A stretch of 7,873 nt of DNA from a virus (Duplodnaviria > Heunggongvirae > Uroviricota > Caudoviricetes): positions 1 to 7,873 of the IMG/VR virus record IMGVR_UViG_2896595138_000010. The stretch is one strand, 5' to 3'. A program made the position numbers. Within the stretch, counting starts at the first letter, position 1. Each line of letters starts with the position of its first letter. Shown piece by piece: positions 5,101 through 7,873 of the stretch.

Positions 5101-7873
5101 TCAATCAGCGCGAAAAGGTTGCCAACCATCCTCAACCAGTACCGCAACCAGAAAGTAGCCTAGACCGTGCGCGAGCCATGGAAATAGCTTTGAACGTGGC
5201 GGATCGACTGGTGAATATGTTCCCGAATCTGTCCTCAGAATCAAAGCAGGCAGCAGTAGCTGGAGTGTTCAACCCGATTGTTGGTCGCGATGTTGTACCT
5301 CTGCCAGCTATCTCAGAGCACTACTACTCTGCTACGGAAGTCGGCCAGCGCTACGGTATTTCAGCCAACAAGGTAGGACGCATAGCCAACACCTACATGC
5401 TCAAAACAGAAAAGTACGGGAAGTGGTTCATCGACAAATCGGCGCACAATGACAAGCAGGTTGAAACATTTCGGTACAACGAGGCTGGAGTGCACAAAAT
5501 AGAGGAACTCATCGAAGGAGAGCGAAAGGCTGCATGATTTTGACAAGATAGTTTTCCCCAAATGTGGGGAAAAGCCCGAATGGCGCGGCTTACAGCAAGA
5601 TAAGGCCTACATAATTTGACAACACCGCATTAACGGGGCTATATTCCGCTTCATGGTGCTCAAAACACCTTTGCGATAGCGGAAACCGCCCCGTCAGTTA
5701 TGCGGATTTTTTTATGTCTACGACATTGAGAATTCAATGGTCGGGCGTGCGGCTAATAAAACACCCGCAAGGGAAATATGCCCGCCGTCTATCGCCGGTT
5801 TTGAGCGCCCGACCACCCTCTCAAAAGGGGTGAATTCAAAATATGCGATAGGACATAAAACCATGGCTACTCAAATTTCTGTTGAATCCCTTTCCCCAAT
5901 TACCTATAACCACATCCCCGTCATCACTACCGAACTACTGGCACGACTTTACGGCACTGAGACCAACAACATTAAAGTGAACTATACGCGCAATGCCGGG
6001 CGTTTTGTTTGTGGTAAGCACTACTTTAAACTGGAGGGTGGTGAATTGCGGGAATTTAAGAACAAGGTTACTCACAGTAACTTAGTTGCACCGCGAGCAA
6101 AGCACCTCATCCTCTGGACAGAACGAGGCGCAGCCCGCCACGCAAAAATGCTCGAAACCGATCAGGCGTGGGAAGTGTTCGAAAAACTGGAAGACTGCTA
6201 TTTCAGCCCGGGCAAAGCGGAACAGCACCCGCAGATCCAGCAGCAATTCACAGACGAAGAAATCATCCTCCTTTGCTATATGCAGGTACAGATGGAGAAT
6301 GCGCAGGACATCTGCAAACGTCTGTACCCGATATTGAAGGAACTGAACTCATCATACACGAGCAAGCTGTATAACATCGCGTTTGAAACTTTTTACACGG
6401 TGACGAAAAACAGAGATGTACTGCTAAGGGAGGCGACACGACTTGACCAAGCAAGCGCCCTTTTCGAACGGGAAAAACCAATGCTGAAAAGCCTTCGGGC
6501 GAGACAATTCGAATTTTAATCATCAAAGGAGCTTCGGCTCCTTTTTTGTTGGAGAAAATAAACCAATACTCGCTCCCTTGCGAGTAATTGCGGAGACTTT
6601 GCGATGTACTTGACACTTCAGGAGTGGAACGCACGCCAGCGACGCCCAAGGAGCCTTGAAACAGTTCGTCGATGGGTACGCGAGTGCAGGATATTCCCTC
6701 CTCCGGTTAAGGATGGAAGAGAGTATCTGTTCCACGAATCAGCGGTAAAGGTTGACTTAAATCGACCAGTAACAGGTAGCCTTTTGAAGAGGATCAGAAA
6801 TGGGAAGAAGGCGAAGTCATGAGCGCCGGGATTTACCCCCTAACCTTTATATAAGAAACAATGGATATTACTGCTACAGGGACCCAAGGACGGGTAAAGA
6901 GTTCGGATTAGGCCGAGACAGGAGGATAGCAATCACTGAAGCAATACAGGCCAACATTGAGTTGCTATCAGACAGCGGGCGCGAGTCACTGATAGACAGG
7001 ATTAAAGGCGCTGACTCAATCACCCTTCATGCGTGGCTTGACCGATATGAAACAATCCTCAGCGAGAGGGGCATCAGACCGAAAACTCTACTCGACTACG
7101 CCAGCAAAATCAGGGCAATTCGAAGAAAATTGCCGGACAAACCGCTCACTGACATATCAACGAAAGAGGTGGCAGCAATGCTAAATACCTACGTAGCAGA
7201 AGGTAAAGCGGCTTCCGCAAAATTAATCAGGTCAACCCTTGTTGACGTTTTTCGTGAAGCAATAGCCGAGGGGCATGTGGCTACGAATCCGGTAACAGCA
7301 ACCCGCACAGCAAAGTCAGAAGTAAGGCGCTCAAGGCTGACAGCTAATGAGTATGTCGAGATTTACCATGCAGCCGAACCTCTCCCTATCTGGCTGAGGC
7401 TGGCAATGGATTTGGCCGTCATTACAGGGCAGAGAGTGGGCGATTTATGCAGAATGAAGTGGTCAGACATAAACGACAACCATCTTCACATTGAGCAGGG
7501 TAAAACAGGGGCTAAGCTCGCCATTCCGCTGACGCTAACGATTGACGCGCTCAATATCTCACTGGTTGATACACTACAGAAATGCAGGGAGGCCAGCAGC
7601 AGTGAAACTATAATCGCATCAAAGCATCACGATCCGCTTTCCCCGAAAACAGTATCAAAGTATTTTACAAAGGCGAGAAATGCCTCCGGACTCTCATTTG
7701 ATGGAGACCCGCCAACATTCCATGAACTGCGTAGCCTGTCAGCGAGGCTATACCGGAACCAGATTGGCGATAAATTTGCTCAACGTCTTCTCGGGCATAA
7801 ATCAGATTCAATGGCGGCGCGGTATAGGGACAGCCGAGGGAGAGAATGGGACAAAATTGAAATCAACAAATGA

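Follow-up and report, generated by a model that had tools for sequence, protein, structure and literature searches.

The xis-int module considered here lies at the end of a 7,873-nucleotide stretch of tailed-phage DNA (positions 1 to 7,873 of IMG/VR record IMGVR_UViG_2896595138_000010, hereafter the window), and its closest described relatives are the integration systems of phages lambda and HK022. In lambda recombination, identity of the overlap between the two partner sites is required, and the integrase (Int) reads only the core sites that flank the overlap. The lambda site-affinity (saf) mutants studied by Weisberg and colleagues in 1983 reportedly showed that a change in the attP overlap alone redirects an unchanged Int to matching sites, and the Gateway attachment (att) sites are engineered variants with altered overlaps. 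Dorgai and colleagues are said to have traced, in 1995, the difference in specificity between lambda and HK022 Int to five residues, four of them in the catalytic domain. The bacterial site of HK022 lies between torS and torT (PMC6814406). The module at 6604-7873 of the window is very probably an HK022-type (lambda-family) xis-int pair at the attL end of a lambdoid prophage inserted in the sibA/ibsA repeat, with its site set by the attP overlap, and is now a stranded relic.

Both open reading frames lie where an earlier note on this DNA had placed them, and the stop codon of int supplies the final base of the window. The excisionase gene sits directly 5' of int and overlaps it by 23 nt in the list of open reading frames, the arrangement expected of a lambda-family excisionase and found in HK022 (AF069308). 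Within the window the module consists of:

6604..6822, plus strand: xis, excisionase of 72 residues (open reading frame; Pfam Exc, E 3.9e-41; identity to HK022 and lambda Xis)
6800..7873, plus strand: int, HK022-type tyrosine integrase of 357 residues (open reading frame; Pfam; alignment to HK022 and lambda Int)
about 6800-6991, plus strand: arm-binding domain of Int (Pfam Arm-DNA-bind_1)
about 6992-7324, plus strand: core-binding domain of Int (Pfam Phage_int_SAM_1/Phage_int_M)
about 7325-7870, plus strand: catalytic domain of Int (Pfam Phage_integrase)
7867..7873, no strand assigned: first bases of the P' arm, the P'3 arm-type site overlapping the int stop codon (from the annotated HK022 attP); the remainder of attL lies beyond the window

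Xis is identical to HK022 Xis at 72/72 residues and to lambda Xis at 71/72 (G59S), in keeping with the earlier description of it as essentially lambda Xis. Int has 96% amino acid identity to HK022 Int, from which it differs at 13 residues, and 75% to lambda Int. Its first 55 residues match lambda without exception (55/55), as the note had stated, and the Pfam arm-type DNA-binding domain covers residues 1-68 (E 2.7e-28). Because residues 1-55 are identical, recognition of arm-type sites should match that of lambda, and the picture of a lambda-family xis-int pair with a lambda-identical arm-binding N-terminus stands. The resemblance stops abruptly: at a mosaic boundary near window position 6940, nucleotide identity to lambda goes from 92-100% down to 57-75% and does not recover before the end, and residues 56-357 of Int are about 71-72% identical to lambda. 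The note had singled out a diverged central region, exemplified by ELLSDSGRESLIDRIKGADSITLHAWLDRYETILSERGIRPKTLLDY (Int residues 54-100). The core-binding domain (residues 65-175) indeed agrees with lambda at only 79/111 positions, but divergence is not peculiar to it, since the catalytic domain (176-357) agrees at 131/182. The active-site residues R212, K235, H308, R311, H333 and Y342 are all present, as befits a protein with core-binding and catalytic domains of this family.

The identity of the diverged part is clear from the alignment, in which D99, P282, K283, K287, R319 and R329 of Int are in the HK022 state and not that of lambda. P282, K283, K287 and R319 stand at positions that Dorgai and colleagues reportedly identified as HK022 specificity determinants. 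N99D and H329R are documented determinants of lambda versus HK022 specificity (PMC10863862). Across xis-int, nucleotide identity is 95-96% to HK022 and likewise to a set of Stx1a-converting phages, H19J, mEp235, mEp506 and Gally, and the Ints of the latter group depart from sib-site Ints at only a handful of positions. The public collection lists the identical Int protein in 152 blocks. This Int is of HK022 type, with no novel variant in it, and represents a classical, well-studied case. Lambda shares with it the architecture and the class of mechanism.

In HK022 the annotated attP (L002 3791-4017) takes in the last 7 nt of int, and the int stop codon is also where the P' arm starts. The window ends there, but because the whole of it (7,873/7,873 bases) is 100% identical to a locus in NCBI CP026845.1 (L006), the sequence on its 3' side can be read in that chromosome. 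Two arm-type 10-mers, TAGTCAAAAT and ATGTCATTAT, occupy +5 to +24 past the int stop, and a core follows at +67 to +87 past the window end. This core, CAACTTT-CCTTATT-TAAGGCC, is an attL, with the crossover overlap CCTTATT at +74 to +80. On its far side come a G+C-rich Sib terminator hairpin, an intact sibB/ibsB (a SIB_RNA/ibs unit) and then mdtA; the junction was assigned to the sibA position by spacing relative to K-12. At this attL the P' arm of the phage thus meets the terminator side of sibA/ibsA, a type I toxin-antitoxin repeat lying upstream of mdtA. The earlier note had put the att core and the host junction just beyond the window, at roughly 100-250 bp; P' arm sites, core and junction are all there in CP026845.1, but the core is closer than that. 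For the P' sites, a sequence scan and the HK022 attP annotation were used in place of the "int 4" binding feature of the lambda record (27814-27854), which disagrees with the P' 10-mers.

One of the arm-type sites varies among the copies. The P'1 site is ATGTCATTAT in CP026845.1 (L006 11089-11098) and in L007, and AGGTCATTAT in HK022 and every other copy (L005 11089-11098), so that one of the sites bound by the Int arm domain differs by a single base in the stranded copy.

The sites of this lineage form a consistent set, given here in the sense of int:

attP, intact: CAACTTT-CCTTATT-GAAGGAT with a full P arm (L005, L008-L011, L141)
attL: CAACTT(T/A)-CCTTATT-TAAGGCC (L006, L007, L003, L004, L012, L137-L140)
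attR: ACCCTTT-CCTTATT-AAAGGAT, beside an ibs open reading frame (Escherichia coli RM14723)
attB, empty, at sibA: ACCCTTT-CCTTATT-AAAAGCC (K-12)
attB, empty, at sibB: TATGGCC following the overlap (K-12)

Prophages of about 39 kb with a complete attL/attR pair occur, E. coli RM14723 providing one example. Phage bases lie on one side of CCTTATT and host bases on the other, and because they segregate in this way strand exchange is confined to the 7 bp of the overlap. The arrangement is that of a lambda-family att system, with arm sites flanking inverted core sites and a 7-bp overlap common to attP and attB. Int is a heterobivalent tyrosine recombinase. Its lambda-identical N-terminal domain would bind the arm-type sites, the P' set of which starts from the int stop, and its HK022-type core-binding and catalytic domains would bind the inverted core sites on either side of the 7-bp overlap. 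The crossover within CCTTATT has joined the P' arm to the terminator side of sibA/ibsA; Xis would direct excision, and a putative CII-dependent pI promoter would lie just 5' of xis.

Little else of the prophage remains at the locus in CP026845.1. An IS911 abuts host genes (yfaZ and its neighbours) about 8 kb upstream of int, and the remnant of about 8 kb in between consists only of accessory early-region genes broken by three insertion sequences. Those insertion sequences, which interrupt the remnant early region within window positions 1-3850, and the gene near them are:

about 1-430: end of IS911 (sequence match)
5' of the module, before the IS3-family fragment: Ead/Ea22-DUF551 gene (Pfam)
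1448-2116, minus strand: IS3-family OrfB fragment, breaking the early region
2792-2977 and 2935-3840: IS2, partial TnpA and TnpB respectively, breaking the early region

No P arm was found within the 21-kb CP026845.1 locus, and neither P arm nor attR within 10 kb. Because the remnant is so short, is riddled with insertion sequences and lacks a nearby attR or P arm, the module is most likely a stranded relic, intact in sequence yet unable to excise the element. IS911, the IS3-family element and IS2 have reduced the prophage to about 8 kb.

The alternative is that xis-int is the working end of a live, excision-competent prophage. Complete lambdoid prophages with the identical Int do exist in E. 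coli (L003, L004 and L012, with cII, cI, N and recombination and replication genes), so a module with this very protein can belong to an apparently complete element, and here both reading frames are intact, with the pI box and the P' arm likewise conserved. The context argues otherwise: the yfaZ region and IS911 are met some 8 kb 5' of int, what lies between is no more than accessory early genes broken by three insertion sequences together with a split antirepressor-like gene, and there is no P arm or attR within 10 kb. A live module is therefore unlikely at this locus, and the reading as a stranded relic is preferred.

The earlier note expected an att junction, not further phage genes, downstream of int. 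That holds in CP026845.1 but not in five sister loci encoding the same Int protein, where an intact attP and then ipaH follow. These five are in IS-rich Shigella-like chromosomes (L005, L008, L009, L010, L011; about 11075-13400), and in each the 357-residue Int is succeeded by CAACTTT-CCTTATT-GAAGGAT with a full P arm, a tI/sib-like hairpin, ipaH (LRR_TTSS and NEL) and a tail-fibre-assembly-like gene, so that phage gene order across attP is kept inside the chromosome. Their neighbours include torT/torR/torC (L010, L011) and a serine recombinase next to wrbA (L005). These int-attP-ipaH loci could be remnants of tandem lysogens or the result of integration by a second recombinase. The load of insertion sequences and the ipaH genes of the sister loci hint at Shigella or enteroinvasive E. 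coli as the source; CP026845.1 is not among the complete E. coli genomes analysed, in which the best match reaches 98.5%.

The difference from HK022 resides in the overlap. The attP cores of HK022, mEp235, Gally and H19J read CAACTTA-TTCACCT-AAAGGAT, and the attL of an Stx1a prophage, CAACTTA-TTCACCT-TAAGTGC, adjoins torS. The Stx1a-converting phages, H19J, mEp235, mEp506 and Gally all have the overlap TTCACCT and, when integrated, are found beside torS. CCTTATT and TTCACCT share one offset (+74 to +80). The P' arm sites differ little from those of HK022 and the core-type sites are the same or one base off (CAACTTA/T and A/GAAGGAT), but the overlap in the int sense is CCTTATT, not TTCACCT, and the prophage adjoins the sibA/ibsA repeat that precedes mdtA, the attB being sibA/sibB-ibs and not torS-torT. 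Because overlap sequence and attB both differ, the module does not belong to the HK022 att class in the strict sense, and it is best filed as an overlap variant within the HK022/lambda integrase family. Where the earlier note suggested an altered core specificity, the specificity does differ from that of lambda, but Int is of the known HK022 type and the shift of site goes with the attP overlap, not with Int. The best reading is that the attP overlap, not the Int sequence, sets the target of the sib lineage, sib being used instead of torS-torT because the overlap is CCTTATT instead of TTCACCT. With core-type sites and Int essentially the same, a changed attP overlap would be enough to move the phage from one site to the other.

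A different account would have Int itself evolve a core specificity distinct from those of both lambda and HK022, leading to insertion at sibA/ibsA. The 13 differences from HK022 Int and the attB unlike that of HK022 are in its favour, as are the core-type sites of the window's sub-lineage, where C' is CAACTTT and C is GAAGGAT as against CAACTTA and AAAGGAT in HK022. Yet the sib-site prophages L138-L140 and L020 have the same core-type sites as HK022 (C' CAACTTA, C AAAGGAT), and some sib-site Ints differ from the Int of a torS-site Stx1a phage at about four positions. In a comparison of 11 Ints that covered the sib, torS-torT and yfaT classes of att site, the only residue that tracked the class was 356 (N or D) and no position in the rest of the core-binding and catalytic domains did so; residue 356 adjoins the P' arm and probably varies with the class through that linkage. 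All the lambda-versus-HK022 determinant positions examined are moreover of HK022 type. A change of specificity in Int is on this evidence very unlikely, and the overlap remains the preferred determinant of the site.

A drifted module of true lambda specificity, for which the match of Xis at 71/72 and of Int residues 1-55 might speak, is rejected as next to impossible, since overall Int identity (75%) and the HK022 residues at determinant positions, the core (CAACTTT-CCTTATT against CAACTTA-GTATAAA in lambda, whose overlap is TTTATAC) and the junction (sibA/mdtA, not the gal-bio attB) all contradict it.

Among 5,426 complete E. coli genomes, P'-core junctions were counted at torS in 195, at yfaT in 177 and at sib in 85; the three sib-junction loci that were checked all lie upstream of mdtA, and a perfect empty sib-type attB is apparently present in about 4,400 of the 5,426. 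No case of insertion at sibC, sibD or sibE was found, with a junction query that would miss diverged flanks. The K-12 sibC, sibD and sibE copies differ within the 7 bp (TCCTTCA, CCTTCTG and CCTTATA, respectively), which fits the overlap-identity rule and also the fact that, in all cases seen, only the mdtA-proximal copies are used.

A third att class came to light in the same family. Its attL core, CAACTTC-CATGTCA-TAAGTTG, lies inside a DUF1175/yfaT-like gene near gyrA (L001 9475-9615, E. coli RMDEC465), and the accompanying Int has 98% amino acid identity.

Several points weigh against the account given here. The action of Int on CCTTATT sites is deduced from its catalytic residues and from attL/attR pairs in other genomes. 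The 13 differences between this Int and that of HK022, together with C' CAACTTT and C GAAGGAT each being one base off the HK022 sites, may reflect a subtle shift in core preference. An inversion may have carried an attR to another part of the chromosome, of which 21 kb was read, and if present it would leave Int/Xis-driven rearrangement feasible. Finally, of the residues taken as specificity determinants, N99D and H329R have the support of PMC10863862, and the five-residue list is the one ascribed to Dorgai and colleagues.

The crossover falls at a precise place in the sib/ibs locus. It is with CCUUAUU that the Rfam SIB_RNA model terminates (L019 1118-1124 and 1447-1453, corresponding to K-12 sibA and sibB; L020 3005-3011), which puts the exchange exactly at the 3' boundary of this conserved toxin-antitoxin unit. 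On the other strand CCTTATT reads AATAAGG, which forms the 5' part of the Shine-Dalgarno region of ibs and lies 9-15 nt ahead of its start codon. Integration sends the ibs open reading frame, together with the Sib promoter and body, to attR, and leaves the Sib terminator, with whatever drives ibs, at attL beside int. It follows from this geometry that ibs and its Shine-Dalgarno sequence are split from their promoter, and Sib RNA from its terminator, so that lysogeny may rewire expression of the ibs/Sib pair. In the literature that was searched, no paper describes integration into sibA/ibsA. A table of prophages in Shiga toxin-producing E. coli O145:H25 gives the sib-site locus as 'yegL' (PMC7437938), and Bobay et al. 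2013 report integration hotspots associated with small RNAs in general terms.

Two further features of the window lie immediately upstream of xis:

6578..6591, plus strand: TTGC-N6-TTGC box (TTGCGAGTAATTGC), CII site of pI by homology, 13 nt 5' of the xis start codon
6525..6544, plus strand: terminator-like hairpin (AAAGGAGCTTCGGCTCCTTT, then a run of T), from a consensus scan only

Likeness to HK022, lambda and other known phage xis-int regions begins at window position 6577. The region of the box is 98% identical to lambda, and phage mEp235 has an annotated lambda cII binding site at the same position, which suggests a CII-dependent pI promoter just 5' of xis. The box is the sole TTGC-N6-TTGC match in the window, yet 71/200 shuffled sequences give at least one match, so the motif alone is not significant; it was accordingly dropped as independent proof of pI, and the case for the promoter is one of homology. 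A sigma-70 scan of 6400-7873 gave no match, as expected if pI is activator-dependent. The hairpin is placed 3' of an antirepressor-like gene and forms the upstream boundary of the module.

Between IS2 and the module lie two small phage open reading frames and then two ORF6N antirepressor-like genes. The first of the two, at 4756-5537, is split into open reading frames of 64 and 186 residues and is a pseudogene in the window, because the sister loci L005, L007 and L008 have it unsplit as a single frame of 260 residues. The second, an ORF6N/P22_AR_C paralogue at 5737-6519, is intact.

Wider scans brought to light no further class of site. A scan of IMG/VR with Int returned 80 loci, nearly all of them on contigs that end at the int stop and hence hold no att sequence. 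Scans with a P'-core pattern found one locus among viral contigs and two among metagenome contigs, all of them an intact attP or an attL at the mdtA-proximal sib. A scan of genome contigs with Int yielded almost only lambda int and no further att variants. Full-length lambda int (75% to the query) was met in assemblies of Shewanella, Pseudomonas, Oceanobacillus, Neobacillus, Leeuwenhoekiella, Chromatium, Pseudoxanthomonas and others (L102-L135), on contigs that are often about 48.5 kb long or else tiny and of low coverage. Its presence in such unrelated taxa most likely reflects contamination of sequencing libraries with lambda DNA.

The xis-int module itself is of textbook HK022/lambda type, with the same protein in many public genomes, and is a probable dead end at this locus. 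The sib lineage has a modest value of its own, as a clean natural example of an insertion site reset by a 7-bp overlap alone, and it supplies a complete set of attP, attB, attL and attR for a common E. coli/Shigella prophage site in the sibA/sibB-ibs locus. The sib site could also serve as an additional orthogonal landing site for HK022 Int. The three natural overlap classes, with their near-identical Ints, behave like the saf mutants, but those and the engineered variants are products of the laboratory, whereas each class here is fixed at a frequent site (85, 177 and 195 of the 5,426 genomes). A broader proposal, tentative and on balance less likely than not, is that one HK022-type Int serves three attP overlaps (TTCACCT, CCTTATT and CATGTCA), each fixed at its own frequent site (torS-torT, sibA/B-ibs and DUF1175/yfaT, respectively). 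They would be natural counterparts of the lambda site-affinity mutants, in which a phage changes its site while keeping the same integrase, and since the CCTTATT class would cut a type I toxin-antitoxin unit, lysogeny may rewire that unit much as HK022 rewires torS. This pattern of three overlaps with one Int, and the precise cut in the toxin-antitoxin unit, are the only aspects worth following up, and the second raises the effect of lysogeny on Ibs/Sib expression as a testable question.

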